Assembly: GCA_030688545.1 (NCBI GenBank)
Contig: JAUYHT010000001.1
Span: forward strand, 1 to 32,000
Reading direction: 5' to 3'
Length of the DNA stretch: 32,000 nt
Source: Candidatus Iainarchaeum sp.
GTDB taxonomy: Archaea > Iainarchaeota > Iainarchaeia > Iainarchaeales > VGJJ01
Part shown: positions 7,356 through 25,878 of the stretch, piece by piece
Layout of the letters: every line of letters begins with the position of its first letter
How positions within the stretch are numbered: the stretch's first letter is position 1
Notes under the pieces: model-generated
Databases searched by the model: none
Told to the model about the DNA's origin: nothing
Seen by the model: the letters and a program-made list of their open reading frames with translations, nothing else
Made by a program: the position numbers and the translations under genes

Positions 7356-8237
7356 ATGGACCCTTCTATTTCACCCCAAAAACAAAATTTTTCTCCCACC
7401 TGGGTGGAGGAGCGAGTAACCCGTCTGAGGGACGAACTTGGGGTGGGGGGGTATTCTCCCAGAACCATTCGCATGTATACGCTGTATGTTAGAAAATACT
7501 TGGAAGGATTATTAATATTGGGAAAACCCCCTGAAGAGGCCTCTAAACACGATATTATCACCTTTCTCGCCCGGGCCAGGACTGCCACTACCTCCAATGC
7601 CACCTTGGCGTTGATGCATGCGGCCTTGACCTTTTACTATAAACGGCACCTCAACTTGAACCTCATTGAAGAGATTTCCATTCCTAAGAAGGCTAAGAAG
7701 CTCCCAGTGGTGTTAACTATTCCTGAGATTAGGATTATCTTCAAACACACCCCCCCTGGGAGAAATAGGTTATTACTTCAATTCCTATATTCAACCGGTT
7801 GCCGGGTCAGCGAAGCCGTCGGTATGAAGGTAGACCAGGTGGATTTTGATAATTTAGTGGCCAACGTGCGCGGCGGGAAAGGAAATAAGGATCGAATTCT
7901 CATCCTTTCTCAGAAATGGGTGGGAAAAGCTAAATCCTATGTGAATCGAAAGAAGGTACCCACCCCCTTCTTGTTTTCCAAGAAAAATGGAAAATCGCTG
8001 TCGACGGATACCATTGAACGCATCGTGAGGCAAGCCGCCCAAAAAGGGGGTTTGACTAAACGAGTAACCCCCCATGTCCTACGCCATTCCTTTGCCACTC
8101 ATTTATTAGAAGGTGGTGAAAATATTCGAAAAATTCAAATTCTGTTGGGCCATGCTAACCTGAGTACGACATCCATCTACACCCACGTCTCCAATGAGGA
8201 GCTTAAACGGGTGCAGAGCCCGTTTGATAAGATATAA
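7356..8237 (+). CDS. tyrosine recombinase, XerC/XerD (archaeal XerA-like) family
   Basis: 293 aa. It has an N-terminal SAM-like core-binding domain (YSPRTIRMYTLYVRKYL). The catalytic residues are recognisable: TGCRVSEAV (Arg), HVLRHSFATHLL (His-x-x-Arg) and LGHANLSTTSIYTHV (His...Tyr). Confidence 0.85.
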   Translation: MDPSISPQKQNFSPTWVEERVTRLRDELGVGGYSPRTIRMYTLYVRKYLEGLLILGKPPEEASKHDIITFLARARTATTSNATLALMHAALTFYYKRHLNLNLIEEISIPKKAKKLPVVLTIPEIRIIFKHTPPGRNRLLLQFLYSTGCRVSEAVGMKVDQVDFDNLVANVRGGKGNKDRILILSQKWVGKAKSYVNRKKVPTPFLFSKKNGKSLSTDTIERIVRQAAQKGGLTKRVTPHVLRHSFATHLLEGGENIRKIQILLGHANLSTTSIYTHVSNEELKRVQSPFDKI

Positions 8238-8305
8238 GGAAAGAATGTGTTTCAGGCGTAACCAGGTTCAACATAATACATTAAATAGCCTAATCAAAAT
8301 CCATA

Positions 8306-8328
8306 TTATGTAGTAAATTTATACATAA
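8306..8328. promoter_or_regulatory. inverted repeat TTATGT-N10-TACATAA (copy 1), with an extra TACATAA half-site at 8344-8350
   Basis: The same half-sites with the same 10-nt spacing occur again at 8858-8880. Confidence 0.45.
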
Positions 8329-8503
8329 CTAATTATTTTGGATTACATAACTCAACCTAACCCCCCCACACTTCCACTACTCCCAAATAATCAGAAAAGA
8401 AAAAATAGGGGTCATTCAAGATGAAAACACCCATTTTTTCCTAAAAGCTTAAATATTCGATTACGATTCTATGCATCACTTCAAATGATTCAGGGGGGCT
8501 GTT

Positions 8504-8818
8504 ATGACTGTACGCATTTCAAAGCTATTCGGGATGGATATCTATACTGATAACGCCGAATACAAAGGAAAAATTTTCGATCTCGTAATCAATCTTGAAA
8601 AAGGGAAGATTGAAACCATGACAACCGAACCATTAAAGGTGCGCACCAAACAGGAAGCACGCAAAATCATTTCCGAACGCAGCATCCCCTATCAGAATGT
8701 TTTATCCGCCAAGGATATTTTAATTGTAGGCACCCGATCCAGGCCTCGATCGGAAGAATCGGATGCACAACCCGAACTTCCACGTCGAACACCCTATACG
8801 GCTTATCGACGGCGATGA
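8504..8818 (+). CDS. PRC-barrel domain protein
   Basis: The N-terminal ~75 aa (ISKLFGMDIYTDNAEYKGKIFDLVINLEKGKIETMTTEP...AKDILIVG) match the archaeal PRC-barrel pattern. A GGGGGG SD-like motif lies 7-13 nt upstream. Confidence 0.65.
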   Translation: MTVRISKLFGMDIYTDNAEYKGKIFDLVINLEKGKIETMTTEPLKVRTKQEARKIISERSIPYQNVLSAKDILIVGTRSRPRSEESDAQPELPRRTPYTAYRRR

Positions 8819-8857
8819 TATCCAGCACCAGGATATCACCTATAATTAAAAACTCTA

Positions 8858-8880
8858 TTATGTCTTATCTAACTACATAA
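8858..8880. promoter_or_regulatory. inverted repeat TTATGT-N10-TACATAA (copy 2), between a TATA-like box (8841-8852) and the 8935 start
   Basis: It has the same architecture as 8306-8328. Its position downstream of TATAATTAAAAA fits an operator. Confidence 0.45.
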
Positions 8881-8934
8881 GAGATTACTCTCTACTAATC
8901 TATCATCCATTACCGGAACTACGGGGGGTCTATT

Positions 8935-9531
8935 ATGGCAAAAGGATATTTCATTCAATACAAATTCATCTTACCTGATAATGTAAAACATTCCACATAC
9001 ACCTATCAAAAATTATTCAGAGCCATATATGGATATACTCAAAATGTTACCAAATCTAATGGAAAAACCTACCACTACCACCGTAAAGGGGTTTTATCAG
9101 ACACCCCCTATTATCGCCCTGGGAAAAATACTGTAATTATTCACCCCAACGCTTTTTCAAAATTTAAAAATTTTTTTATGACAGGTCAAAATCCATCTCA
9201 CAATTGGCGTTCAAAGGGAGATTGGAAGGCAGTCTATTACATGGATGAAAAAGAGGTGGATGACACCAAAATCCTGGCTGCTATGGAGGATTTGCTCGAG
9301 AGGACCTATTTATCCCCCACTGGCAAGAATCCATTAAAAATAAATGATGAAATGAGCATATTGTTGGACAAGCACCGCCTCCAAGAAAACATTGATGAAA
9401 CCCGCAAAAAAATCGTTCTTCAAGAGGCTCAAACCATCACATCCCATGAATGGTTCCGGATATCGCACACCAAATCAAAATTATTAACTGAATTCAATGA
9501 CAAAGTTAAGTTATTGAAGGGATTGAGCTGA
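8935..9531 (+). CDS. 198-aa hypothetical protein (low-GC module)
   Basis: Long ORF with a GGGGGG SD-like motif upstream. K/N/Y/I-rich. I recognise no family. Its 3' end overlaps the convergent 9511..9978 gene by 21 nt. Confidence 0.6.
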   Translation: MAKGYFIQYKFILPDNVKHSTYTYQKLFRAIYGYTQNVTKSNGKTYHYHRKGVLSDTPYYRPGKNTVIIHPNAFSKFKNFFMTGQNPSHNWRSKGDWKAVYYMDEKEVDDTKILAAMEDLLERTYLSPTGKNPLKINDEMSILLDKHRLQENIDETRKKIVLQEAQTITSHEWFRISHTKSKLLTEFNDKVKLLKGLS

Positions 9532-9978
9532 AGCGGGAACCACCGCTTCTTCCTCTTCTTCCAGACTGATCATCAACGTTTTTTTTCGCCATCTCATTTT
9601 TCCCCCCGCAACATTTACCTCTAGTAACCCAGAATCAACCAATGTCTTCAAATAAGGGTATAGACTCCTCTCATTCTTATATTCGACTTGAAATAACTCT
9701 TTCACGCGACGAAGTATTTCATCCATGGCGGTCCACTCATCAAAAGATAGCACGTGGCTGATATGGTAGGCTTGGGTATCCTCTCGGAACTTCAAATAGT
9801 CCCATAAATTGACTATCCTAAAACGTGGCGAATGGTTAACATTTTCTTCTGTTATTTGAGTGGTTAAAATAGTGGTCTGGGTTCCTTTTTGTGGTCTCTC
9901 AGTAATAGGTTCCATATCGACCCATTGTTCTATCTTTCGTATGGTTCTGAAAAGGGACCGTAGGACATTTTTTATCAT
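9511..9978 (-). CDS. 155-aa hypothetical protein with a probable C-terminal winged-helix DNA-binding domain and an acidic tail
   Basis: The segment WTAMDEILRRVKELFQVEYKNERSLYPYLKTLVDSGLLEVNVAGGKMRWRK looks like helix-turn-helix plus a beta wing. The gene sits directly behind the GTAATTAC array. Confidence 0.55.
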   Translation of the reverse strand: MIKNVLRSLFRTIRKIEQWVDMEPITERPQKGTQTTILTTQITEENVNHSPRFRIVNLWDYLKFREDTQAYHISHVLSFDEWTAMDEILRRVKELFQVEYKNERSLYPYLKTLVDSGLLEVNVAGGKMRWRKKTLMISLEEEEEAVVPASAQSLQ

Positions 9979-9988
9979 GGTAATGATA

Positions 9989-10077
9989 GTAATTACCGTA
10001 ATTACTTAAAAACTGTATGGTAATTACTAGTAATTACCAAAACATATAAAATAATGAGATATAAAGTTGGTAATTAC
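9989..10077. promoter_or_regulatory. array of five perfect 8-bp palindromes GTAATTAC (operator- or iteron-like)
   Basis: Perfect copies lie at 9989-9996, 9998-10005, 10020-10027, 10030-10037 and 10070-10077. Degenerate copies lie at 9979-9986 and 10159-10172. The motif occurs nowhere else in the window. The first pair lies between a TTTTTAAG box and the ATG at 9978. Confidence 0.65.
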
Positions 10078-10294
10078 CAAATCTGTTAATAAGGGGGTTG
10101 AATTTCATTCAGTGAGTCTGAAATAATCATAAAATATAGTTAATATATTAATAAATTGTAATTAACGTTAATAAAAAAGGTAAAAAATTGAAAACGAGGG
10201 GTCTTTTTTCAGTTATTTTACCCAAAAAAGGAAAGGTGGAAAATATTGAGAGATCTAAAATTCAGTGATCTGGATTATAATCAGAAAAAAGGGA

Positions 10295-10369
10295 TAGCGG
10301 GGGAAGGATTTGAACCTTCGATCTTCGGGTTATGAGCCCGACGGGCACTCCAGGCTGCCCCGCCCCGCT
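10295..10369 (-). tRNA. tRNA-Met (CAU), archaeal initiator type
   Basis: Hand-folded cloverleaf: AGCGGGG / CCCCGCT acceptor stem with A1:U72, anticodon arm TCGGG-CTCATAA-CCCGA with three G:C pairs, T arm GAAGG-TTCAAAT-CCTTC, discriminator A. CCA is not encoded. Confidence 0.88.
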
Positions 10370-10494
10370 ATTAAGTATTAACGTTATTCCGTTAATCGTA
10401 TGTTGAATCTATTAGGCCATTTCAGGGCAATTAATCTTAGGATCATTTGTATTTTAATATTTTGGATTGTCCTAAAATGTGTGTTTTGCAACCC

Positions 10495-11034
10495 TCATAC
10501 ACTCTTTTGCAACGCTCCAAGTTCCCTTTTGAGAAAGGTGATTTGAGTTTGGATATTTTTATTTCTTTTAGCGGAATCAATGGGTTGCATCATATCCCCA
10601 CATTCGGGGCAATGGAATTCATATTGGGCGGCAATCTCAAAAGCCGTCTCCTCACATTCCTTCCCGCAGGCAAAAAATTCATGTGATTTATCGAATCGCG
10701 CTTTCTGTTCCAATTTCTGAAGCTGTTCCGAATGCTGTTCGATAATAAGTTCCACAATCCGTCGTTTCTTGATCTCCCACGTATAGGTATACCACCCTGA
10801 ATTCTTATTTTTGGTTTTATTATAACAGGCGATCCCCCGGTAATGAAGGCGATTCAGGATGCTTCTTATTTCGGTTATCTTGAGTTTTTTCAATTTTTTC
10901 TCGATATCTTCATCCAAACAATCCCCATTCCGGTCCATGCAAATCCGGACCACATCAACAGCTTCGTCGCCCCCCACTGTCTTGAGAAAATCTTGTGTTA
11001 TCTTATACCCTAATATGTCCCCACTCTTTCCCAT
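10495..11034 (-). CDS. tfe: transcription factor E (TFE alpha)
   Basis: 179 aa. It has an N-terminal winged helix (ITEIRSILNRLHYRGIACYNK..WYTYTWEI) and a C-terminal zinc ribbon (CGKEC...CPECG). Confidence 0.85.
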   Translation of the reverse strand: MGKSGDILGYKITQDFLKTVGGDEAVDVVRICMDRNGDCLDEDIEKKLKKLKITEIRSILNRLHYRGIACYNKTKNKNSGWYTYTWEIKKRRIVELIIEQHSEQLQKLEQKARFDKSHEFFACGKECEETAFEIAAQYEFHCPECGDMMQPIDSAKRNKNIQTQITFLKRELGALQKSV

Positions 11035-11052: not shown

Positions 11053-11601
11053 TTAGGTTTTAAATGGATGGAGCCGCACATCTTTTCCTTTGGGGTTGGG
11101 GAAGATGAAAATATTTTCCCCAGGAAAATCTAATTTCTCTTCTCCCCCATCCATTAAGTAATGTAGAAATACCCCCAGTGCCGCCACTTCCGAATGGGGT
11201 TGCCGCGTGATGCTGGTATTCCGATCGGCTATAGTATACACCTCTGCTGGGACTTTTCCCGACCCAATAACCACCACCACGTTCTTGTTTCTTTTTTTCC
11301 TGATCCATCGCACGGTTTTAGGGGCTTCTTCCCCATACATGGTGAGGTGGATGATGATCCATCCCATTTTTTTTAGCTGGCGGATCCTTTGAATGATATT
11401 TTTTTCATACGCCACTTCGAATGCTCCCCCAAATCTCTTCCTGACTTTTTCCACTGTTTTCCGAATATTCTTATCCAATGAGTCGCTGAGGATGATGCGT
11501 TCAGCCCCGAAGGCCCGGGCCACCAAGGCGCAATGGGTAGTAATTCGAAGGTCTCTATACCCGCGCTCGCTCAGCCGTACAACAATAATATTCGGTTTCA
11601 T
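11053..11601 (-). CDS. trm56: tRNA (cytidine56-2'-O)-methyltransferase aTrm56 (SPOUT family)
   Basis: It shows family-typical motifs: VVRLSERGYRDLRITTHCALVARAFGA, HLTMYG, VVVIGSGKVPAEVY and ITRQPHSEVAALGVFL. Its ATG overlaps the upstream gene's stop (ATGA at 11598-11601). Confidence 0.85.
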   Translation of the reverse strand: MKPNIIVVRLSERGYRDLRITTHCALVARAFGAERIILSDSLDKNIRKTVEKVRKRFGGAFEVAYEKNIIQRIRQLKKMGWIIIHLTMYGEEAPKTVRWIRKKRNKNVVVVIGSGKVPAEVYTIADRNTSITRQPHSEVAALGVFLHYLMDGGEEKLDFPGENIFIFPNPKGKDVRLHPFKT

Positions 11602-12449
11602 GGGTTCACACGGAGGGTGAATGTAGCAATACCCTCTCCCGAGGAAAAGGTTTCAGTCTCCCTAAAATAGGTTTGTCCGCCCCAAGCTTTTTCCAATTCG
11701 GGATCAGGCGCCGTGGGAAACACTCTCACGACATATATTCCAGGGGGGGCGGTAGGTAATACAATCCCTTCTATTTTCACGCGTTGCACCCAATCCGCAT
11801 CGAAGGTGGGAAAATTTTTACCAATCAATAGGTTTTGTGGGGTGAAACGGATACGGACGATTTTCTCCAGATCATTGAGATTGAACCGCGGTACCTCGTC
11901 AGGAGTGGCGGGTTCATAATCCAATTCATACCTCAACCCCATTCCTTGTCGCTGCGTGACCCCCCATGAAGCTCCTATTAGTAAATATCCTTCAGTCTCT
12001 GTTTCTCCCCGGGTGATGGTCGCTTCCTGTTTTCCCGGAGTGCCCATTATCCCAACGCTATAGGGAATGCTCCCATCCCCCCCCACCCAGAATGCTTTTC
12101 CCACTGTCTCGAATGTCGGGTAAAATTCAGGTTGAGTGTATATGGTTTCAGGCACTATTCCCACTACCCCTTTTTCCCCTGAGTAGGCGCGTTCCTTCCA
12201 TTGGTCGAAGTCTTTGGGGACGGGCGGGAGTTTAGCCGTGATATCATTCTCTTCCTCTATCCCATAGACTTGGGCGAAGAAAGCCCGTGCTTCCTCAACC
12301 GTTACCCCCTGTTGGTGGGCATAACCTCTAATCAATCCTCGCTGGTCCTTCCTATTATCATCCACCCCGTCAGGGTTTCCAATTTCCACTATTTGGTCGC
12401 TTACGCACCCGGCTAGGATCATAATCATTAACAACCCCCATCGCCACAT
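11598..12449 (-). CDS. partner protein A: ~283-aa exported lipobox protein, paralog of 20525..21328
   Basis: I prefer the ATG at 12449 (MWRWGLLMIMILAGC, lipobox-like L-A-G-C), 1 nt after the stop of the 923-aa gene. It shares motifs with partner B: QPEFYPTF/QPEFFPSF, GKNFPTFDADWVQRVKI/GPTFPKFHPNWVHPVTI and FTLRVNP/FHLIVSPA. Confidence 0.75.
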   Translation of the reverse strand: MWRWGLLMIMILAGCVSDQIVEIGNPDGVDDNRKDQRGLIRGYAHQQGVTVEEARAFFAQVYGIEEENDITAKLPPVPKDFDQWKERAYSGEKGVVGIVPETIYTQPEFYPTFETVGKAFWVGGDGSIPYSVGIMGTPGKQEATITRGETETEGYLLIGASWGVTQRQGMGLRYELDYEPATPDEVPRFNLNDLEKIVRIRFTPQNLLIGKNFPTFDADWVQRVKIEGIVLPTAPPGIYVVRVFPTAPDPELEKAWGGQTYFRETETFSSGEGIATFTLRVNP

Positions 12450-12450
12450 G

Positions 12451-15222
12451 TCAATTCCTCGTCTCGAAATTCTTATTATGGTCACCCGCATTAACGAAAA
12501 TATTCATATCCCCGCTGAAACACAATTGATTAGTGTCTCCTCCCCCCAGGCCGGTAACCAACCGGGCGGGGGTGATAGCATTACTCTGGTTGTATTGCCG
12601 GCATGTCGTGGCGGTTGGAGGGGTAGTGGTTCCCGTCACGCTGCAGTCCTTTTCCCATCCTCCCAACCCATTATCATCACTCCCGCACCCGCTTCCGGTC
12701 CCCTGCCATACCTTCAGCACAATATTCAAATCCGTTCCGGTGAAGGCGCTGCTGAAATTTCCATCTAAGTCCACGCTGCTCCCCCCCACGTTCGTAATAG
12801 TAAAAGGAGATAGGGTTTCGCTTTGGCAAAAATTGGTGGAAGTGGGGTAATAGGTGAGATTCAGATCGAGGTAGTCGATCGTCATACAGCTTTGTTTATT
12901 CCCGGTGTCAGTCGAGGCCGGCACTCCGGTTACGAGAAGGGTGATATTCCCGTCGGTGGACACGTATTGAGGGATATAGTTGCTTGTGTTTCCACTAATG
13001 CTCCTTCCCCCGGGTGACCCATCTCCTGTTCCGGGTAGGGAAGCGATCGTTTCGTATAGGTTGCGTGTGTAGTTCCAGATGAATATGTTTAGGTCGGCCG
13101 GATTGTATGTCGATGTTCCGCAGATTGAACCCAATGGGCCGGTTCCACTGTTTCCTACGAACATGACATTAATATCCACAATGCGTTGAACGTCGGTGAA
13201 GGTGGGTCGGAATACCGCACGCATCGCGGGGTACACGGTTGTCGTTGTCTCAGACTGAGTCCAGTATGATGTATCATCAGCGGATATATTGGAATAATTG
13301 GTGGTGGTGAATTCCACGGATGGGGTGTCATTCGTAAACGGTGGTTTTTCCGTGACATTGCTCTTATACCCGACGTGCGTTGAGCTTGGTTCCGAAACCC
13401 CGTCAAAATTCTGGTCTTGGGTGAATGTTTGGAAGTCGAACCGGATAGGTCGCGGCTTTATTTTGGCCGCATTCCCATCGGCGTCAGGGTCGAATACCGC
13501 ATCATGTTCATTAAAAAAGAAGGCGCTGGCCGTGCAATTCCCTCCATAAGTAATAGTATGTCCGCTCGTCGACACCACATTGAATATGAATAGGGTTGTT
13601 GCCGTATCTTTCGCCTGCGGAATGGTGGCGGTGGGCCATTCGATAACCTCATATCGATATTCAATTGATTGCCCGGTATCCGATCGCCATAAAGTAATAG
13701 TATTCGTGGCCGTCAAACGCAGGTTGATGTGCCCTCGCGGAAGGGCAAACCCGGTGCCAGTGCTCGTGGAGGTTTCCCCAAACACGGAAGATTGATTCAG
13801 GTCAAATACCGTGTCGATGGTTTCCGTCCAGGTGTCCGGCTCGCTCTGCCCGGTCCCCCGGCTCCCCCCCCGTCTTTGGACACTCATTTTATTTCCATCC
13901 CCCTGCGTATTCTCGATGATCCATACCACTGCATCGTGGGCCACGTTAGCCCCGGATTTCAACTGAAATGATAGCGTACTGGTGTCCTTGAGATAAGCCA
14001 ATTGCCCCAATTCATCTAACCCGCCATTCGATGTTCGCAATTGGGATTCGATAAATGTCTTGTTGATATCCCCTACTGTGGGGGAAAAGGTCTCAGTTTC
14101 TTCAGATCCAGCGGCCGAATACGTATGCGTCACCCGCCGCACATTGGCCCAATGTTGCCCAATGAATTCAACCACCGCGTAACTGACGTGCGCGGTTCCC
14201 GTTGTATCCCCCCGTGTGAAGGTAGGCGTATTAGTCGAATCCGTCCAGGCCGAGGTGAATAATGCCCGATCCCCCGTCCCATTGGCCGTCTGGTCGGCGG
14301 ATTGTCCCGTGATAAATATGGCGACTTTATTATCATCCGCCACCACCCCGACGGCTTCCCCCGTGAGATTACCACTGGCCGCCGTGGCCACGCTGGAATC
14401 CCTCACAATAAACTCATTATCCCCTCCCGGTGGTCCCACGTATTCAATTATTTCCCAAGTAATGGTGGTGTTCAGGGTCCCACTGCTCTGTTCGCGGGCG
14501 AAGGTAATGGCGCTCAACAGGTTTTGGGGATTTGAAACGTATGTAAAGAGATAAGCCGGGTTCTGGGTGGTTTGCCCGATTTGATTCCCGCTCGCCGTGA
14601 GTCGGGTCGCGGTGTGCCGGATGAATGCTTTGTTGATGTCCGCCGGGGCATCATAATTGACGTCGGCGGTAATGGTCACCGTGCCCACATTCACTGGGAT
14701 GACGGCTTCTCCTCTCTGGATATGGAAATCCGCCGTCTGATTGTAGGCATACTCTTTCACTTCCCCGAAGGAAAATTCCAATTGATGCTTTCCCCAGCTT
14801 TCCACCCGGCTCCGTTCATATATGGTTTCGTCGCATTCGAAGTTTGGAATAACCCATTCATCCCCCTCCCATTTTTCCTCCAATTTTTCATCCCCGCAAT
14901 AAACCCCCTCCATTGTCAAATCCCCTCTCAGTCCATCAAACCATTTGGTTTCTCCCGCCGGGGCAATCCGCAGGTCCGCTTTTCCCTCCACCTTCAAACG
15001 CACTTCCCATATTCGGTGGATAATAGGGTTTTCCTGCGGATTCAAAATAGTGAGCGCAGGCGTCGTTTCAGGGGGATAAAAAAAAACGTCTTCCTCCTGG
15101 ATCGGCAAAATTCCTCCATCTCTTTCATCCTCCATTCCCCCCGCCCCGGCCGCGGAGGCCATCCCCATGGCGAGCAGGATGATCCACCCCCCCAATAATC
15201 CCCCTTTAATCCAATAGCGCAT
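12451..15222 (-). CDS. 923-aa exported giant protein with no membrane anchor, many N-x-S/T sequons and an internal four-fold repeat
   Basis: Signal peptide MRYWIKGGLLGGWIILLAMGMASA. There are four ~90-aa repeats, each with a D[IDL]N[KQ] start motif and a hydrophobic-x-[VI][IV]E[YFNW] end motif. The C-terminal domain contains Cys. No TM segment at the C-terminus. Confidence 0.85.
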   Translation of the reverse strand: MRYWIKGGLLGGWIILLAMGMASAAGAGGMEDERDGGILPIQEEDVFFYPPETTPALTILNPQENPIIHRIWEVRLKVEGKADLRIAPAGETKWFDGLRGDLTMEGVYCGDEKLEEKWEGDEWVIPNFECDETIYERSRVESWGKHQLEFSFGEVKEYAYNQTADFHIQRGEAVIPVNVGTVTITADVNYDAPADINKAFIRHTATRLTASGNQIGQTTQNPAYLFTYVSNPQNLLSAITFAREQSSGTLNTTITWEIIEYVGPPGGDNEFIVRDSSVATAASGNLTGEAVGVVADDNKVAIFITGQSADQTANGTGDRALFTSAWTDSTNTPTFTRGDTTGTAHVSYAVVEFIGQHWANVRRVTHTYSAAGSEETETFSPTVGDINKTFIESQLRTSNGGLDELGQLAYLKDTSTLSFQLKSGANVAHDAVVWIIENTQGDGNKMSVQRRGGSRGTGQSEPDTWTETIDTVFDLNQSSVFGETSTSTGTGFALPRGHINLRLTATNTITLWRSDTGQSIEYRYEVIEWPTATIPQAKDTATTLFIFNVVSTSGHTITYGGNCTASAFFFNEHDAVFDPDADGNAAKIKPRPIRFDFQTFTQDQNFDGVSEPSSTHVGYKSNVTEKPPFTNDTPSVEFTTTNYSNISADDTSYWTQSETTTTVYPAMRAVFRPTFTDVQRIVDINVMFVGNSGTGPLGSICGTSTYNPADLNIFIWNYTRNLYETIASLPGTGDGSPGGRSISGNTSNYIPQYVSTDGNITLLVTGVPASTDTGNKQSCMTIDYLDLNLTYYPTSTNFCQSETLSPFTITNVGGSSVDLDGNFSSAFTGTDLNIVLKVWQGTGSGCGSDDNGLGGWEKDCSVTGTTTPPTATTCRQYNQSNAITPARLVTGLGGGDTNQLCFSGDMNIFVNAGDHNKNFETRN

Positions 15223-15301
15223 GGGGGTTCAACGTCCTGGAAATTAATAAAGCTGCCCAGCATGCCCTCATCCATTAAAACCCGGTTCGCGTAGGGGATG
15301 C
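15223..15301. promoter_or_regulatory. 79-bp bidirectional promoter region between the two giant genes
   Basis: TTTATTAA (minus sense, 15243-15250) lies ~24 nt from ATG 15222. CATTAAAA (15273-15280) lies ~26 nt from ATG 15302. There is no room for 5' leaders. Confidence 0.5.
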
Positions 15302-18300
15302 ATGTTCTCTGCGCTCACCCGTCATTCTCTTTGGTTAGGCCTCCTGATACTATTCGTGATGGCTCCTTTTCTCGTGGTGGCGCAGGAGCGGGTGGGTGAT
15401 GTGGCGTCATCTAAAATCCGTCTCGATTTTTCCTTCACCATTGTCGCGCCCTTGGATGGGGAGAAAGTGTCCGGCACTTTTCTTCTCCTGCTCCACTCCG
15501 ATGACCAAATAACCCGCGCCGCCGCCACCATTTCCTCTCCGGGTGAAAAAGTCCCGCTCGTCACCCTTTCCATTGACCCCTCTTCCAGACAAGCGGAATG
15601 GGATACATCTTCCGCCCCCGATGGCCCTTATCAAGTGGTAGTCGAAGCCTGCGAGGCCGATATCTGTCTCTCCCGTTCCAAGATATTCCACATCGCCAAT
15701 GCGACCGCCCCGCCCATACGCGATGATAAACCCCCATCTCCTCCCTCTCCCATTGTACCACCAAGCGAATCGGAATTCGAATCCCTCACCCCCGAACCCA
15801 GCGAGAAACCCATTCCCCCGGTTCCCGGAGACCGCGTGCGCCGACGCCAGGTGGCTATCCCCGCTCCTTCTCCCGCGGATCCCTCTCCGCAAATCCCTCC
15901 CCCTCTCCCGCCGGAGCCGTTGTTCACCATTTTTCCACCTAATGTTTTTTCATTAGTGGAAATCCGCAATCGCGCGGATACAAATACGCTTCTCCGTGGA
16001 AGCGGGGAGCAATTCCAATTGCCCTCAGGCATCTATAACGCGCATGTCACTATCCCCAAACACCCCTTGGTTTCGATCGCTTTGGAGCGCTTCTCCGTGG
16101 ACCAGGACGCGCAACTGTTTCAGATAACCCCATTATCGTCCCCCCCTATCTTGTCCATCAAGGATATCAATTACAACGTCCAGGCCGCTTATTCCCTGTC
16201 ATTCGGTTTTCCTTTCGAGCGGGCGATCCTCGCGTGGGCCAAGCGGGAGAATGGAAATCTCTTTTACTGCTCCTCTCCCGATTCCTTATCTAATTCCTGT
16301 CGCGTCACCTGGCAACCCGTTCCGGTCTCAAAAAACAGATTTGAGCTCATTTCCCTCTCACAGGAGAATTGGATTGTATATGGGATTCCCCAGACCAAAA
16401 TCCAAGACCCATTACCTATTCATTCAATCATCCTCTCCAATGCCCCCGGAGAGTTCTTTCTTCTTCAACCCCCCAAAAAATTAGGTCCGTTTGACGGGAA
16501 TATGGTAGACGTGGAGGAAGGTCGATATACTGCGCGCCTCCATTTCCACGACCTCCCCCTCTCCGTCGTTCGTTTAGAAGATGTGAATATTTCCCATTCC
16601 GGCACCGTGTTCACCTCTCAACCTATCCCCCTCTCCCCGGATGCCATCGATCGCAATATCACTGACATTTTCCATTTCGACGTGGGTTTTAATTTTGATT
16701 CCTGGGATTTCCGTCTCGACAAAATTTTTGAGGAAACCATAAACTATTGCACCCGCTGGTCGACCGACACCCTTTCATGTGGGGGTCAGTGGGTCGCGTC
16801 CCCATCCCCCGTTCTAGAACCCGGGGTAAATGTCTTTGGATTCACTCGTAAGGAGATTAGCGCCACGCCTACTATTCCCGACATTAACGCGTCATCGGAT
16901 GACCTGGATCGGGCCATCGCCTGGTTGCAACGTCTTCATGCGGGCAAGCGTTTCTTTTATGCCGATGATGCTCGCGCTTCCTATTCCTCTTTGGAAACCC
17001 TTTTTTCCCAAGTTGAGATTAATCTCGAATGTCCATCCCCTGCTCCTTTCATTCAGCAGGATGCCACCACCCCGATAGTGGATCCATCACCCCGCGAGGG
17101 TTTCCCATCCCCTCCATCATCCAATCCTCTTTCAACTCCCCCAGATGTTTCTAGTCAAGACCATGTTCCTTCTTCCAACGCGGACGGCGAGGAAAACGGT
17201 TCCTCCAACCCCCCATCAAACCCCTCGTTTCCCCCGCGCGGTTCCCCCCTATTCTATACCAATGATTGGGAAGATCATTTTCCAAACCCTCCGGGCTGGC
17301 GTCAGCGCGAAGACATTCTGTCTTGCGGCGGGATTTCCCTGCGTAACTATTTTGACCCCCAGTTCTCCCCGCGCGATTCCCCCAATTCAATTTTCATCGG
17401 GCGTTCGGATAACGCCCTCAAGCAGCAGTTTGTCTTAGCCAATAATGATAGCGTACCCCGCACCCGCATAATCAGCATCCGTCTCCATGCCCCTTTCCCA
17501 TCGATTCTCTCCGAAACCGAAAATATATTCCCAAGTCCTTTGTATCGTTTGGTGTATCCATCCCCTGACACTTCTCCTTTCTCCCATTCCACTATTCGCT
17601 TTCTCGATGAGGACGTTTCCCAAATTGGTTTCTATGATTTTTCTGATTTGATCACCGGGGGTTTCGACCCATTAGTCGTCGTGCACCGCAAGGCGGAAGA
17701 AACCGTGATAGACACCCTTCTCGAAATAACTCTCCTTCCCGGTCAATCCATTCTCCTGGACCCCCATTATTTCCTTTCCAGTTCCGCTAATTACACCGCT
17801 CGCTGGTCGGGGGGAATCGCCAGCGATCGCCTGGGGGCCCTCAACGCCTTGACGACAGAGAATGTTCCCAATGCCCCCGGCGAAGGCGTCCAACTCCTCA
17901 ACCTCGACAATGGTTCCTATGCCAATGATCTCCTTATCGCCGCTCCTCTCGCGGATACCAATTCCAAGGCCGATGCGGGGGCGCTGTATATGGTATTGAA
18001 TATCGATTCGCGCATGGGAAATTTCGACATGAACACCCCGTCCTCATACGATGCCCGTTTCTCCGGTTCCCGAGCGGGGGATATGCTCACATACCCCACC
18101 CAAGTGGGGAAAGGGTTCCAAGTATTCGATGCGGATGGCGATGGCTCCACGAATGACTTGCTCGTGGTCGCGGGGAGTGCCACCTTCACGGGCGCGAATG
18201 CGGGTTCTCTCTATTTCATCCAGGACATCCATTCCAAATCGGGTTTACTCGATCTGAACAACCTAAACAATTTCACCGCCCGCTGGGACGGGTTATCTAA

Positions 18301-20524
18301 TTCCAGGTTGGGATGGACCGGGTATTCGGGGGATGCCTTCGACGTGTATGATGTGGATGCCGATGGCATCCTGGATGACCTGGTATTATCCCTCCCTTTC
18401 GGGGACACCCAATCCCGCACCGATAACGGGGCGCTTTACCTCATCAACAATGTCACCTCCCGCTCGGGCATCAATCCCCTCTCGTCCTCTTCCTCGTATA
18501 CCGTGGCCTATCACGGCGCGACCGCCTCCGATAAGATTGGGGGCGATTTAAACGGGGGATTAGGCTACCAAATCGTCAACATGGATGGGAATGCCTCCGC
18601 CAACGATGTGGTGCTCGTAGCTCCCTTCGCGGACCTCCTTCAAGGTTTTTTTTTTATCCTCAATGACAATGGGGGGGTCTACATCATTCCCGATTTCAAC
18701 ACGCGAACCGGGGATGTGGATCTTTCCTCGGTGTTTTTCCCATTATTCAATGGCAAGTTGGACAATGACAATGTGGGGTATAGCAATGACAGCAATCTCA
18801 CCGCTCAGATCGTGAATACTGATGGCAATGCCAATGCGAATGATCTCCTCATCACCTGCATCCTCTGCGACAATTCTCGTACCGACAATGGGTCCATCCA
18901 CTTATTCAAGGATGCCCATCTCCGTACCGCGGCCACGGATTTGACCACGAGCGATGTGTATTGGACCCCCATGGTTAATTTGGATCAATTCGGCTACACC
19001 GCGGGCGGGGGTTTGGGGGCCCAGGTCGTAAATCTCGATGGGAATGTGGCCGCCAATGATATGATTGTTACGTGTGCCCGCTGCAACACCGCGAGCATCC
19101 TGGAGAATGGCACCGTCTATATCTTTCGAGACATCAACACCCTCTCCGGGGCCAAAGCCCTGAGTGTTTCCTCCAACTACTATCTCCGTTTCTATGGCGC
19201 TACCAACTACGACCGTATTGGTGACATTGGGAAATCCGGCCAATCTGTTCAGCTCGTGAACACCGATGGCAATGCACTAGCCAACGACCTGGTGTTCGGT
19301 TCCCGTGCCGTTACCACTTCCCCCGGAATAACGGGCGCAGTATATTTTGTGCGCGACCTCCTTTCCTTCTCCGGCTCGCTCACTTTGGCTACATCATCCA
19401 ATTACACCGCCCGCTGGTCCCCTCCTTCGGTCGACGACAATTTCGGTTACACCAACAATTCGGGTCCCGGCATCCAAATAGTGAATCTCGATAATGGTAT
19501 AGCTACCAATGACCTCATTGTTACCGCGGTGCGCGCGGACATTAATTCCAAGACAAACGCCGGGGGGGTATGGGTCATGAAGGACATCAACACCCTCTCC
19601 GGCCAGATTATCTTGGATACGGATGCCAATTACAGCGTGCGTTTCAACGGGGGGAAAACCGAGGACTATCTGGGTTACACCATTCAAGGGGGCCAAGGAA
19701 CCTGGATGGTGAATCTGGACAACAATGCTTACTCCAATGACCTCGTCCTCGCGGCCGCGAGCGCCGACACTACTCTTCAGGATGCGGGTTCCGTTTACAT
19801 CATCCAGGATGTGGATTTCAAATCAGGCAATATCGATTTAGATACGAATACTAATTACCTTAAACGCTATTCCGGGGGCGATGCCAACCTATTTTTGGGC
19901 TCCACCCAATATGGGGGTTCGGGCCTCCGTTTGTTGGATTCGGATGGGGATTCCTTCCTCGATCTTTTTCTCACCTCCGTACAGGCGGACATCAATGGCA
20001 AGCCTCAGAGCGGAGTGCTCTATCGGATTGAAGATGTTTACCGTTTCCTCGACGTGGGGTTGGACTATTCTTTCACTCTCTCTCTCCCTGCTGATGGGTG
20101 TACGGATGGTAAAGGCAATTTCTCCGGGGGCACGAGTTGCCAGCGGGGGTGGGTGGGGGCCACGAGCGACACGCAGACCCAGGTGCAACCCGAAGGACAG
20201 GATGTCGATAATACCATCTCCTTTTTCGTCCTTGACAATCAGAGCACTACTTCCTCCGACTTCAATGTGTTCCTCGATCTCAATGCCGCGCTCCCCGGTA
20301 CCATCGTGTTCAAGGCATCCAATTCAAAAAGCGGGTATCAATCCACTTGCTCCGGCAATCCTGCTAATAATTGCGTGACCCTTTCCACGACCAAGAAATC
20401 CGTCGGCACGGCCATCTATTCCGCGGGGACGCAGGACCTCAACATCTTTTTCTGGGCCGATTTCACCAGCGCCCCCGATGGCAATGTGGATCGAAACGTG
20501 GGGAGTACCGCGCAATCGCCGTGA
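15302..20524 (+). CDS. 1740-aa exported giant protein: signal peptide, Ig-like domain, two proline-rich linkers, at least 10 FG-GAP/integrin-alpha-like repeats and a C-terminal Cys-containing domain
   Basis: Signal LWLGLLILFVMAPFLVVAQE. Pro-rich stretches lie at ~15702-15925 and ~17033-17250. The repeat pattern is NYTARW..[FLI]G....G.G.Q..N.DG....NDL....A..AD......GA.Y...D......G. No C-terminal TM. Confidence 0.9.
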   Translation: MFSALTRHSLWLGLLILFVMAPFLVVAQERVGDVASSKIRLDFSFTIVAPLDGEKVSGTFLLLLHSDDQITRAAATISSPGEKVPLVTLSIDPSSRQAEWDTSSAPDGPYQVVVEACEADICLSRSKIFHIANATAPPIRDDKPPSPPSPIVPPSESEFESLTPEPSEKPIPPVPGDRVRRRQVAIPAPSPADPSPQIPPPLPPEPLFTIFPPNVFSLVEIRNRADTNTLLRGSGEQFQLPSGIYNAHVTIPKHPLVSIALERFSVDQDAQLFQITPLSSPPILSIKDINYNVQAAYSLSFGFPFERAILAWAKRENGNLFYCSSPDSLSNSCRVTWQPVPVSKNRFELISLSQENWIVYGIPQTKIQDPLPIHSIILSNAPGEFFLLQPPKKLGPFDGNMVDVEEGRYTARLHFHDLPLSVVRLEDVNISHSGTVFTSQPIPLSPDAIDRNITDIFHFDVGFNFDSWDFRLDKIFEETINYCTRWSTDTLSCGGQWVASPSPVLEPGVNVFGFTRKEISATPTIPDINASSDDLDRAIAWLQRLHAGKRFFYADDARASYSSLETLFSQVEINLECPSPAPFIQQDATTPIVDPSPREGFPSPPSSNPLSTPPDVSSQDHVPSSNADGEENGSSNPPSNPSFPPRGSPLFYTNDWEDHFPNPPGWRQREDILSCGGISLRNYFDPQFSPRDSPNSIFIGRSDNALKQQFVLANNDSVPRTRIISIRLHAPFPSILSETENIFPSPLYRLVYPSPDTSPFSHSTIRFLDEDVSQIGFYDFSDLITGGFDPLVVVHRKAEETVIDTLLEITLLPGQSILLDPHYFLSSSANYTARWSGGIASDRLGALNALTTENVPNAPGEGVQLLNLDNGSYANDLLIAAPLADTNSKADAGALYMVLNIDSRMGNFDMNTPSSYDARFSGSRAGDMLTYPTQVGKGFQVFDADGDGSTNDLLVVAGSATFTGANAGSLYFIQDIHSKSGLLDLNNLNNFTARWDGLSNSRLGWTGYSGDAFDVYDVDADGILDDLVLSLPFGDTQSRTDNGALYLINNVTSRSGINPLSSSSSYTVAYHGATASDKIGGDLNGGLGYQIVNMDGNASANDVVLVAPFADLLQGFFFILNDNGGVYIIPDFNTRTGDVDLSSVFFPLFNGKLDNDNVGYSNDSNLTAQIVNTDGNANANDLLITCILCDNSRTDNGSIHLFKDAHLRTAATDLTTSDVYWTPMVNLDQFGYTAGGGLGAQVVNLDGNVAANDMIVTCARCNTASILENGTVYIFRDINTLSGAKALSVSSNYYLRFYGATNYDRIGDIGKSGQSVQLVNTDGNALANDLVFGSRAVTTSPGITGAVYFVRDLLSFSGSLTLATSSNYTARWSPPSVDDNFGYTNNSGPGIQIVNLDNGIATNDLIVTAVRADINSKTNAGGVWVMKDINTLSGQIILDTDANYSVRFNGGKTEDYLGYTIQGGQGTWMVNLDNNAYSNDLVLAAASADTTLQDAGSVYIIQDVDFKSGNIDLDTNTNYLKRYSGGDANLFLGSTQYGGSGLRLLDSDGDSFLDLFLTSVQADINGKPQSGVLYRIEDVYRFLDVGLDYSFTLSLPADGCTDGKGNFSGGTSCQRGWVGATSDTQTQVQPEGQDVDNTISFFVLDNQSTTSSDFNVFLDLNAALPGTIVFKASNSKSGYQSTCSGNPANNCVTLSTTKKSVGTAIYSAGTQDLNIFFWADFTSAPDGNVDRNVGSTAQSP
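17780..20046 (+). repeat. at least 10 tandem ~75-aa FG-GAP-like (beta-propeller blade) repeats inside the 1740-aa gene
   Basis: Each unit has a [FLI]G element and a DxDxDG-like Ca-binding loop (for example DADGDGSTNDL, DVDADGILDDL, NTDGNANANDL, NLDGNVAANDM), followed by GA-x-Y. The units are diverged at the DNA level. Confidence 0.75.
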
Positions 20525-21328
20525 ATGATATCTATGCGTCCGTCCTTTCATCCCAAAAAATCCTTTCCCTTCCTCCCAGTAGCTGGCCTTCTCCTCCTCG
20601 GCATATTATTCCTTTTCTTTTTCTTTTCAACAACTTCCCCCCAACCACCAGATTCCAATTCCATTGATGAATCATGCATAGACATCTCCCGCGCATCCTA
20701 CCCTATTCCCCTCTCCGCATTCGAGTATCTCCCCGACATCCCCTCTTGTCTCGGCACGGTCGCGGCTGCCATCAGTTCAAAGGAAATTAACGACTTTCTA
20801 TTCTTCGACGAATCCTACTACCTCCAACCCGAATTCTTTCCCTCATTCACCAAAGAAGGGTTCGCGTATTGGGAAAACATATCCCCAGCCCACTACGGTG
20901 CCATCGGTTTCGGTGCCTTCCCTTCCTCTCAAAAAATTTCGTTATCTCCGGGGGAGACCAAGATGGTTCGCGTCTTCTTCCATGCGGGTTTCGGGGTGCG
21001 CGGTTTCCAGGGAGGTCAGCTTTTTCCCCGTTTTCAGGACCCCACCTCTGCTTCCTTCGTTCAAATCGAATTGGATCCAGCTTCCCGTACCGGCTTCCTC
21101 CTGGGCCCCACCTTTCCCAAATTCCATCCCAATTGGGTGCATCCCGTGACGATCCGCGTAACTGCCACCCAGGCCATTCCAGAAGATCTGGTAATCCAAT
21201 TCCACACCGCTCCTCCCACCACCCAAAATGCTCTCACCTGGTCAGAAGCGTATGCGCCCTACTATTTCCCCCTCACCCAATACGTGGGGTCGCGTCAGGC
21301 TTTCCACCTCATTGTTTCCCCCGCATGA
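20525..21328 (+). CDS. partner protein B: 267-aa N-terminally anchored protein, paralog of 11598..12449
   Basis: The ATG immediately follows the TGA of the 1740-aa gene. N-terminal TM FLPVAGLLLLGILFLFFFF. It shares motifs with partner A (see that feature). Confidence 0.75.
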   Translation: MISMRPSFHPKKSFPFLPVAGLLLLGILFLFFFFSTTSPQPPDSNSIDESCIDISRASYPIPLSAFEYLPDIPSCLGTVAAAISSKEINDFLFFDESYYLQPEFFPSFTKEGFAYWENISPAHYGAIGFGAFPSSQKISLSPGETKMVRVFFHAGFGVRGFQGGQLFPRFQDPTSASFVQIELDPASRTGFLLGPTFPKFHPNWVHPVTIRVTATQAIPEDLVIQFHTAPPTTQNALTWSEAYAPYYFPLTQYVGSRQAFHLIVSPA

Positions 21329-21369
21329 ATGGGCTTTTATAATGCTTTTCGCGTGGATTTCTGTCTAGT

Positions 21370-21443
21370 GGGGCCATAGCTCAGTCTGGTAGAGCAGCGG
21401 GCTTTTAACCCGCGTGTCGAGGGTTCAAATCCCTCTGGCCTCG
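21370..21443 (+). tRNA. tRNA-Lys (UUU)
   Basis: Cloverleaf: GGGGCCA/TGGCCTC acceptor stem with one G:U, D arm GCTC-AGTCTGGTA-GAGC, anticodon arm GCGGG-CTTTTAA-CCCGC, T arm GAGGG-TTCAAAT-CCCTC. TATA-like CTTTTATAAT lies ~27 nt upstream. Confidence 0.9.
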
Positions 21444-21472
21444 TCCATTTCCCATTGGACCAACCGGGGTTA

Positions 21473-23905: not shown

Positions 23906-24631
23906 ATGAAAGGGGTTGCCATCATCGAGGCTCGACGCATCACAAAAACTTACCAAATGGGTGACGTTCCCCTGAAAGTGCTTAAGGGAATTGATGCCGC
24001 CATCCTTCAAGGGGAATATGTGGCCATCATTGGGCCCTCCGGCTCAGGGAAAACTACGCTGCTCGACATCCTCTCCGGGTTGCTCCGCCCATCCTCCGGT
24101 GAGGTATTCATCCACCAAAATCCTATTTCGGGTATGGACGACAATGCCCTGGCCCTGGTCCGGGGTCGGACGATAGGGTTTGTTTTCCAGACCTTCAATC
24201 TTATCCCTCGTCTCACGGCCTTGGAAAATGTGATGCTCCCCCTCTGGTTCCAGGGCATGCCTTCCGCCGAGCGGGAGTCCCGAGCCCGAAGCGTATTGGG
24301 GGAGGTGGGGTTGGGAGATCGTTTGTTTCACACTCCCAATCAACTTTCGGGGGGTCAGCGTCAACGGGTGGCTATTGCCCGGGCCCTCGCGGGGAATCCG
24401 GATGTCATTGTCGCTGACGAGCCGACCGGCAATCTGGATTCCCTCTCGGGAGCCAATATTCTTTCCATTTTGGGTGCCCTTCACGCTAAAGGTAAAACCA
24501 TAGTGGTGGTCACCCATGATAAGCAGGTCGCCCAGCGGGCATCCCGCATCATCCATATTAAAGATGGCCTCATCGTACAGCCTGAGACGGTGCGGAATAA
24601 GCTCCGTGCCCCCCGGAGGCCTTCCCGATGA
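23906..24631 (+). CDS. ABC transporter ATP-binding protein, MacB/LolD-like
   Basis: Walker A GPSGSGKTT, Q-loop FQTFNL, signature LSGGQRQRVAIARAL, Walker B VIVADEPTGNLD, H-loop VTHD. TATA-like CTTTTATAC lies ~27 nt upstream. Confidence 0.92.
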   Translation: MKGVAIIEARRITKTYQMGDVPLKVLKGIDAAILQGEYVAIIGPSGSGKTTLLDILSGLLRPSSGEVFIHQNPISGMDDNALALVRGRTIGFVFQTFNLIPRLTALENVMLPLWFQGMPSAERESRARSVLGEVGLGDRLFHTPNQLSGGQRQRVAIARALAGNPDVIVADEPTGNLDSLSGANILSILGALHAKGKTIVVVTHDKQVAQRASRIIHIKDGLIVQPETVRNKLRAPRRPSR

Positions 24632-25860: not shown

Positions 25861-25878
25861 TTTTCTTTACGATTTCCC

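Follow-up and report, generated by a model that had tools for sequence, protein, structure and literature searches.

A candidate two-gene surface-display module in Iainarchaeum: divergent pairs of a dock-bearing exported protein and a membrane-anchored partner

The first 32,000 nucleotides of contig JAUYHT010000001.1 of Candidatus Iainarchaeum sp. (assembly GCA_030688545.1; this whole stretch is called the window) were found to contain two gene pairs diverging around a 79-bp spacer, each consisting of a secreted surface protein (giant A or giant B) and a membrane-anchored partner (partner A or partner B). The host is a tiny groundwater DPANN archaeon (Iainarchaeota/Candidatus Diapherotrites). 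By profile comparison, both giants end in members of one homologous family, a jelly-roll 'dock' domain of ~155-190 amino acids (aa), and a dock gene was found beside nearly every partner gene in the related loci. This shared C-terminal domain was overlooked in the initial annotation of the stretch, although the coordinates and open reading frames (ORFs) agree with its description of two pairs diverging from the 79-bp spacer. The two pairs may be two copies of a two-gene surface-display module, in which the membrane-tethered partner holds its cognate dock protein, a reading that is given about an even chance. The coordinates of all features are given in Table 1.

The dock domain of the exported proteins

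Giant A was found to contain a signal peptide followed by an N-terminal extension of ~540 aa without a recognised fold and a C-terminal dock with an inserted domain. Giant B contained a signal peptide followed by an N-terminal region with Pro-rich linkers, FG-GAP-like repeats and a C-terminal dock. No significant local match was found between the two giants by BLASTP, and they are not homologous overall. A first, narrow profile comparison between the A-type core and the C-terminus of the B type gave a weak match (probability 30%, P=5.7e-4), with a score of 31.1 against a block-shuffle null of mean 16.2, standard deviation 3.1 and maximum 27.6 in 60 trials. The B-type profile was found to retrieve directly free-standing secreted proteins of 174-180 aa (E=3e-7 and 1e-9), encoded immediately upstream of partner genes on one Micrarchaeota contig and one other DPANN contig, and its iteration added proteins of 176-212 aa upstream of partners in Aenigmatarchaeota. 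With these intermediates, the A and B dock profiles aligned over their full length (94%, E=1.2e-7, in an alignment of our own), and hhalign of alignment A3 with alignment A6 gave a probability of 97.4% and E=1.3e-11 over 169 columns. The dock homology thus became convincing only after the distant members had joined the profiles, and it is from this full-domain alignment that the assignment of both giants to one dock family follows. No meaningful PDB match came from profile searches with the alignments of the partner and of the two dock types (A and B).

The A-type core, as seen in the short-form family, was found to contain six invariant Cys residues and a DxDxDGN loop within ~190 aa, and in most genomes it makes up the whole mature protein of 210-230 aa (usually about 212). 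Some A-type proteins of 400-440 aa contained a second domain inserted in a loop, and others of 620-650 aa contained a LamG_3 domain, with further lectin-type domains among the relatives. A-type proteins of at least 800 aa were found only in the window (923 aa), in locus L006 and in locus L004. Giant size, which had been put forward as a hallmark of the pairs, was therefore not borne out for the A-type member: A-type proteins are usually about 212 aa long, and it is the dock domain, not the size, that goes with the partner. The C-terminal 380 aa of giant A were found to be 45% identical to a 405-aa protein of locus L001, whereas its N-terminal extension was common only to L006 (E=1e-135) and, weakly, to L002. 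The six Cys residues of the short form were retained in the giant A dock when aligned with its homologs, and its Cys-rich jelly-roll carried the calcium-type loop in the form DPDADGN.

Locus L006 (JAGVNS010000141.1) is the closest relative of the window cluster, with a partner B that is 48% identical. Its record bears the name 'Thaumarchaeota archaeon', a bin label that is probably wrong, as the gene content looks Iainarchaeal.

The inserted domain probably corresponds to Pfam PF27237 (AF_1625_C). Precomputed matches to this family were present in most orthologs of at least 400 aa and in none of the 212-aa forms, which places it on the inserted domain, and giant A was 45-56% identical to the PF27237-bearing orthologs; its own inserted stretch is assigned through the records of these relatives. 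No mention of AF_1625 was found in a literature search.

The AlphaFold2 (AF2) model of giant A residues 547-923 had a predicted local distance difference test score (pLDDT) of 91 and a predicted template modelling score of 0.84. The Foldseek matches of this model were jelly-roll or lectin-like, with a baseplate protein of phage phi812 at E=2e-5, followed by PNGase F, MAM, legume lectins, Eph ligand-binding domains and carbohydrate-binding modules (CBMs). No pilin or S-layer protein was present among the 50 matches listed; the idea of a donor-strand pilin was weakened by the jelly-roll fold and by this absence of pilins.

The B-type giants of the relatives were found to range from 600 to over 2600 aa (up to 2650) and to share a C-terminal domain of ~155 aa, aligned here from 29 giants and 52% identical between the window and L001. 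The DxDxDGN calcium loop was conserved in the A-type docks but not in the B-type docks. Upstream of its dock, giant B contained nine to ten regularly spaced units of ~75 aa with xNxDGN calcium-type loops and conserved flanks, as seen in a motif scan. The best Pfam FG-GAP match of this region was sub-threshold (E=0.0024, 18.2 bits against a curated cutoff of 22.1 bits), and the repeats probably form a beta-propeller.

In the hydropathy profiles, both giants were found to contain an N-terminal hydrophobic segment only, with no C-terminal transmembrane (TM) segment, and no PGF-CTERM/PEF-CTERM-like sorting signal was found by hydropathy or by a scan of the NCBIfam sorting domains; the earlier statement that the giants lack a C-terminal anchor is upheld. 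They had also been described as rich in N-glycosylation sequons. Giant A contained 17 and giant B 20, where composition predicts 11.3 and 18.9, so that the description stands for the absolute number and not as an enrichment, the abundance being due to the N/S/T-rich composition.

The partner family and its pairing with dock genes

Partner A was found to contain a lipobox signal (MWRWGLLMIMILAGC) with LLMIMILAGC and its canonical L-A-G-C. Behind it lie a linker, then a helical region, then an Ig-like domain. In partner B, residues 12-40 were strongly hydrophobic. The N-terminal anchors previously read in the two partners, a lipobox in A and a TM helix in B, were thus both recovered. Partner A and partner B were 29% identical over 129 aa (BLASTP E=4e-13), and their collinearity extended to the C-terminus in the family alignment, which bears out the earlier view that they are paralogs and gives it a significant pairwise statistic. 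Neither partner had a match in Pfam (E<=1), NCBIfam or PDB sequence searches, in agreement with their placement outside any characterised family, and none of the four proteins of the two pairs reached the threshold of a Pfam or NCBIfam family.

Both partners were 100% identical to NCBI entries of this organism. The word-index search with partner A returned only partner A itself, and the same type of database contained 13 relatives of partner B at ~40% identity. The family emerged only from the partner B search followed by an exhaustive profile search, in which a profile of the 13 relatives and partner A retrieved about 400 representatives of clusters at 50% identity. All of the matches listed were single-domain proteins, mostly of 230-370 aa with some shorter fragments. 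The family, which was without annotation, was found in Iainarchaeota/Diapherotrites, Aenigmatarchaeota and Micrarchaeota. An N-terminal hydrophobic anchor was present in 138 of the 158 members inspected (25 of lipobox type and 113 of TM type), the remaining 20 being fragments or truncated start calls. Lipobox and TM helix were found to interchange at the same N-terminal position across the family, and because of this exchange the N-terminus most likely serves only for membrane fixation. The conserved positions were Pro, Gly, aromatic residues, Gln and Glu, with the motifs LQPEFFPxF and FLLGPTFPKFxxxW, and the family alignment contained no conserved Cys, His or Ser. The possibility that the partner is an enzyme, such as a typical hydrolase or transferase, was weakened by the absence of these three conserved residues.

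The AF2 model of partner B (mean pLDDT 86) contained a TM helix at residues 17-34 followed by a disordered linker, a helical part at residues 44-117 and one beta-sandwich at residues 125-267. Among its top Foldseek matches in the PDB were PapD-like/ASH domains (E=7.6e-6) and MSP/VAP domains, with the fimbrial chaperone CfaA lower; the E-values of these three ran from 8e-6 to about 6e-4, and the matches were weak, with a TM-score of about 0.5 on small targets and with generic Fn3/Ig domains scoring alike. The sandwich is regarded as Ig-like, and it may have a PapD/MSP-like topology.

The scan of species-representative genomes was made with alignment A1, which biases its taxonomic picture toward Iainarchaeota, and gave 48 loci, nearly all of them from Iainarchaeum/Diapherotrites metagenome-assembled genomes with a few from Aenigmatarchaeota. 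In every locus ORFs were called, and profiles made from the partner and from the C-terminal part of each giant were run against them. A dock gene was found on the same strand within 150 nt of 62 of the 68 partner genes (49 loci), upstream of the partner in 57 of these pairings and downstream in 5. The six remaining partners comprised two at contig edges, one beside a split giant, one frameshifted partner, one with a gap of 206 nt and one separated by 10.7 kb. Micrarchaeota, Aenigmatarchaeota and one more lineage contained free-standing dock proteins of 174-212 aa directly upstream of partners.

A neighbour-joining tree of the partner domain was found to contain clades that coincide with the dock type of the neighbour. 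The partner A clade had long A-type neighbours, two clades had short A-type neighbours, the partner B clade had B-type giants only, and the partners of Aenigmatarchaeota formed a further clade. Together with the 62 of 68 pairings, the match of clades to dock type supports the earlier claim that each small protein is the cognate partner of a secreted one. The fixed order of giant then partner that had been described did not hold, since the dock gene lies downstream in five loci and two more giants (L002, L017) come after their partner B.

At junction A of the window (TGA-C-ATG) the MWRW start of partner A at 12449 was found 1 nt past the stop codon of giant A, the mechanical ORF of this partner reaching beyond it to 12491. 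At junction B (TGA-ATG) the ATG of partner B at 20525 follows the TGA of giant B with a gap of 0 nt, and the reported start of each partner 0-1 nt after the giant's stop could thus be read in the sequence at both junctions. In the B-type and long A-type pairs of the relatives, the two genes overlapped by 4 nt or lay no more than about 33 nt apart. Such spacings of 0-1 nt and overlaps of 4 nt fit stoichiometric co-production.

The A and B pairs were found to adjoin each other in about 22 loci, with varying order and orientation. A common layout had all four genes on the same strand, as giant - partner - small dock - partner, and the mirror-image layout of the window was one of several. The window pairs are flanked by housekeeping genes, with aTrm56 and TFE on one side and Band-7, HSP20 and a MacB-type ATP-binding cassette (ABC) system on the other, and the same flanks (Trm56/TFE and Band7/HSP20) were found around an orthologous cluster in another Iainarchaeum genome. 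The initial annotation had taken the locus for an inverted duplication inherited as a cassette; the pairs are often co-directional, not mirror-image, and the conserved chromosomal neighbourhood in the relative indicates that the duplication is ancient and that the locus was inherited vertically, as neither a recent inverted duplication nor a mobile cassette.

These observations bear on a first alternative, that the two proteins do not interact directly and that the pairs are co-regulated envelope genes with shared needs of expression. Archaeal envelope genes often do cluster, as in the case of the NEW3/CARDB protein beside an ABC transporter in the window. Against this stand an adjacency that outlasts changes in gene order and in orientation in three or more named DPANN phyla (Iainarchaeota/Diapherotrites, Aenigmatarchaeota, Micrarchaeota), partner clades that track the dock type, and stop/start overlaps of the kind typical of translational coupling, and mere co-regulation is considered very improbable.

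Two loci contained variants of the pair. In the complete Iainarchaeum genome CP064981.1 (locus L047, 7602-8707), the partner beside a 217-aa dock appeared to be split into overlapping ORFs of 237 and 223 aa, which suggests a frameshift or a pseudogene. In the distant DPANN locus L052 (7110-8126), the 3' end of the partner gene was found to overlap by 4 nt with the gene of a 338-aa protein, which has a signal peptide, an ectodomain rich in beta structure and several TM segments near its C-terminus; this protein may be one more membrane component that the module has in this lineage.

Proposed surface display and competing explanations

In the proposed mechanism, the first gene would export through Sec a Cys-rich, calcium-loop-bearing jelly-roll dock, either alone or as the C-terminal end of a larger protein. 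The partner would be fixed on the outer face of the membrane by its N-terminal TM helix or lipid anchor. After the anchor, the partner has a linker whose length varies, then a small helical part that bears the most conserved aromatic and proline motifs, and one Ig-like sandwich. Each partner would bind the dock of its own neighbour, and the anchorless protein would be kept on the cell in the way that SlaB holds SlaA, with unrelated proteins. The analysis shows the gene pairing, the match of clades to dock type, the common dock domain, the anchors and the folds; the partner-dock binding and its stoichiometry are inferred, and the held proteins would act as single adhesins or form a lattice.

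The closest known logic is that of SlaA/SlaB of the Sulfolobales, in which a large anchorless Sec-exported protein is encoded beside a smaller membrane-anchored one, and the Ig-like domains of SlaB contact SlaA and hold it above the membrane (PMC10903991; PMC11607397). No sequence relation and no fold relation to this pair was detected. SlaB contains three beta-sandwich domains, a coiled-coil helix of 132 aa and a C-terminal TM segment (PMC10903991), whereas the partners of the window contain an N-terminal anchor and one Ig-like domain, with no coiled coil or long helix. Unlike SlaA, the held protein would here be recognised through a small modular domain that also exists alone.

Several points weigh against the proposal that the partner holds the dock. 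If the TM-type N-termini were cleaved as signal peptides, as they could be, those partners would be soluble, and the fold matches of the partner are weak, as given above. The usual presence of a separate partner for each dock protein is needless for a generic anchor and fits a dedicated chaperone equally well, and in L052 a single partner adjoins two dock proteins (giant - small dock - one partner). The lectin-like fold predicted for the dock may also bind surface glycans unaided.

The last of these points leads to a second alternative, in which the dock itself would be a calcium-dependent, lectin-like anchor and the partner would serve its folding, disulfide quality control or regulated release. 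It agrees with the fold matches of the dock to lectins, CBMs, MAM and Eph ligand-binding domains, with the conserved DxDxDGN calcium-type loop of the A-type docks and with the LamG_3 and other lectin-type domains of the relatives. It leaves unexplained a near-universal, adjacent, co-diverging and membrane-anchored partner, the calcium loop is not conserved in the B-type docks, and the partner contains no conserved residues of catalytic type. Because the partner clades are congruent with the dock type, this explanation and that of co-regulation are both the less likely, and a dock that anchors itself is considered improbable.

A third alternative, and the main rival, is the assembly of fibres without an usher, there being no outer membrane, in which small docks would polymerise as a shaft, the giants would be tip adhesins, and the Ig-like partner would act as chaperone, nucleator or base in the manner of PapD/CfaA or TapA. 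One domain is indeed found both in the small proteins and at the C-termini of the giants, just as the C-terminus of FimH-type adhesins carries the domain of the small subunits, and the clusters include giant - partner - small dock - partner as well as giant - small dock - one partner. The PapD-like/ASH, MSP and, lower, CfaA domains among the best matches of the partner sandwich recall the chaperones PapD, FimC and CfaA, and in the small A-type proteins a strongly conserved TTMTWxVPS strand was found to follow the signal peptide directly. The dock model is nevertheless a complete jelly-roll, at its pLDDT of 91, without this N-terminal strand, whereas the pilins of chaperone-usher systems are incomplete Ig domains. 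PapD chaperones are soluble and contain two Ig domains, whereas the partner is membrane-tethered with one, and no Pfam match to PapD_N (PF00345) or PapD_C (PF02753) was found in either partner (E<=1). Chaperone-usher systems use a single chaperone for all subunits, whereas the dock types mostly have their own partner. No usher-like or large beta-barrel gene was found in the clusters examined, the neighbours being dock proteins and housekeeping genes.

Fibre systems of another kind are TapA-TasA of Bacillus and the TasA-like archaeal bundling pili, in which a secreted jelly-roll protein stands beside a cell-associated accessory anchor or nucleator. The window has a similar arrangement, with a jelly-roll secreted protein next to a cell-associated partner. 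No match to Peptidase_M73/TasA was found in Pfam or in PDB sequences, no SipW-type signal peptidase gene was found in the clusters, and neither TasA nor archaeal bundling pili, threads, cannulae or Ena were present among the 50 dock matches listed. On this balance the assembly of fibres is considered unlikely, yet likelier than the other two alternatives.

In a broader form of the same idea, the pairs would belong to a lineage-wide DPANN apparatus that is not a type IV pilus, with the jelly-roll as small subunits and as the foot of the giants, assembled or rooted by a PapD/MSP-like Ig partner. This is put forward as a speculative reading, to which a low probability is given. If true, the chaperone-assisted assembly of fibres or of a canopy would have an archaeal counterpart that works without an usher, and the apparatus could serve attachment to hosts or surfaces.

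Two further systems resemble the proposed holding of the dock by its partner. In cohesin-dockerin pairs, as here, a calcium-loop module lies at the C-terminus of varied large proteins and a beta-sandwich receptor is fixed to the cell. A dockerin is an EF-hand-like helical pair of ~70 aa, whereas the dock consists of 155-190 aa of beta structure, and cohesin scaffolds carry many cohesins, whereas one receptor per client is found here. Scans of the partners, of the giants and of the giants' C-terminal parts gave no match to Pfam Cohesin (PF00963) or Dockerin_1 (PF00404). ArlF/ArlG (FlaF/FlaG) have the same topology as the partner, with an N-terminal membrane helix followed by a beta-sandwich, and a passage in PMC11607397 states that FlaF binds the S-layer protein. 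These proteins are much shorter than the partner and are without its conserved helical part; they were not among the 50 partner fold matches listed, and no archaellum genes were found near the window pairs.

Locus features, neighbouring genes and significance

Table 1. Features of the two gene pairs in the window, with strand and supporting evidence
Feature	Coordinates	Strand	Evidence
Partner A, 283 aa	11598..12449	-	ORF and start context; BLASTP to partner B E=4e-13; L001 ortholog E=1e-52; clade
Giant A, 923 aa	12451..15222	-	ORF map, hydropathy
Dock domain of giant A, residues 543-923	12454..13596	-	Alignments A3-A5, AF2 model, Foldseek
Inserted beta domain in giant A dock, ~205 aa, residues ~591-795	12838..13452	-	Short/long-form alignment, PF27237 records
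Divergent intergenic region, 79 bp	15223..15301	.	Sequence read directly
Giant B, 1740 aa	15302..20524	+	ORF map, hydropathy, weak Pfam FG-GAP match, repeat scan
FG-GAP-like repeat region of giant B, residues ~831-1585	17792..20056	+	Motif scan; Pfam FG-GAP E=0.0024
Dock domain of giant B, residues 1588-1740	20063..20521	+	L001 identity, 29-giant alignment, hhalign, iterative search
Partner B, 267 aa	20525..21328	+	ORF map, family alignment, AF2, Foldseek, clade

The spacer was found to contain two A/T-rich TATA-like boxes (~15241-15251 and 15275-15281), each ~20-30 nt from one of the two ATG codons. They fit divergent archaeal promoters with short or no leaders and are regarded as putative promoter elements.

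Downstream of partner B, 41 nt past its stop codon, the ARAGORN calls of a tRNA-Lys(ttt) (21369-21447, plus strand) and a tRNA-Gln(ttg) (21388-21462, minus strand) overlap, and one of the two must be spurious. At 23906-28331 (plus strand), an ABC ATPase gene was found to precede those of a 410-aa NEW3/CARDB/DUF11-like protein, which has a signal peptide and a C-terminal TM segment, and of two MacB/FtsX-type permease paralogs; the same block also follows the L001 cluster.

On the other side of the pairs, the plus-strand gene at 2487-6218 encodes an acidic protein of 1243 aa with a lipobox-type signal (MQMAWGLLFVIVFLSGC) resembling that of partner A. It ends in a hydrophobic stretch (LPVIGIGILAGGGLVYRYWKRK) that was not flagged by a Kyte-Doolittle scan at a threshold of at least 1.6, and it had no Pfam match; it is an uncharacterised envelope protein, unrelated to the partner and dock families. 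The stretch 8000-11000 was found to have a G+C content of 37-40%, against about 52% elsewhere in the window, and contained TFE, a tRNA-Met and two ORFs without annotation (8935-9531 and 9511-9978, of which the second gave a weak hint of PadR). Both ORFs have L001 counterparts of the same size and order, and judged by these the stretch does not look like a recent insertion.

No description of the partner family, the dock domain or their pairing was found in literature searches. What is known is the principle of pairing an anchorless exported protein with a neighbour that carries a membrane anchor, not these protein families or their modular dock. The module is a widely conserved set of two families, with about 400 partner clusters and with dock proteins that span 174 aa to more than 2600 aa. 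A dock domain beside a partner gene gives a rule for spotting surface-displayed proteins in DPANN genomes and, if the proposal of surface display is true, families of Pfam-less 'dark matter' would receive a working role. The predictions that follow can be tested, namely that binding would be specific to the cognate pair and that retention at the surface would be lost without the partner. The finding bears on how DPANN archaea build their envelope and attach to hosts or surfaces, where giant surface proteins are without recognised anchors; the pairing described here probably shows how DPANN cells hold large adhesin-like proteins on their surface.

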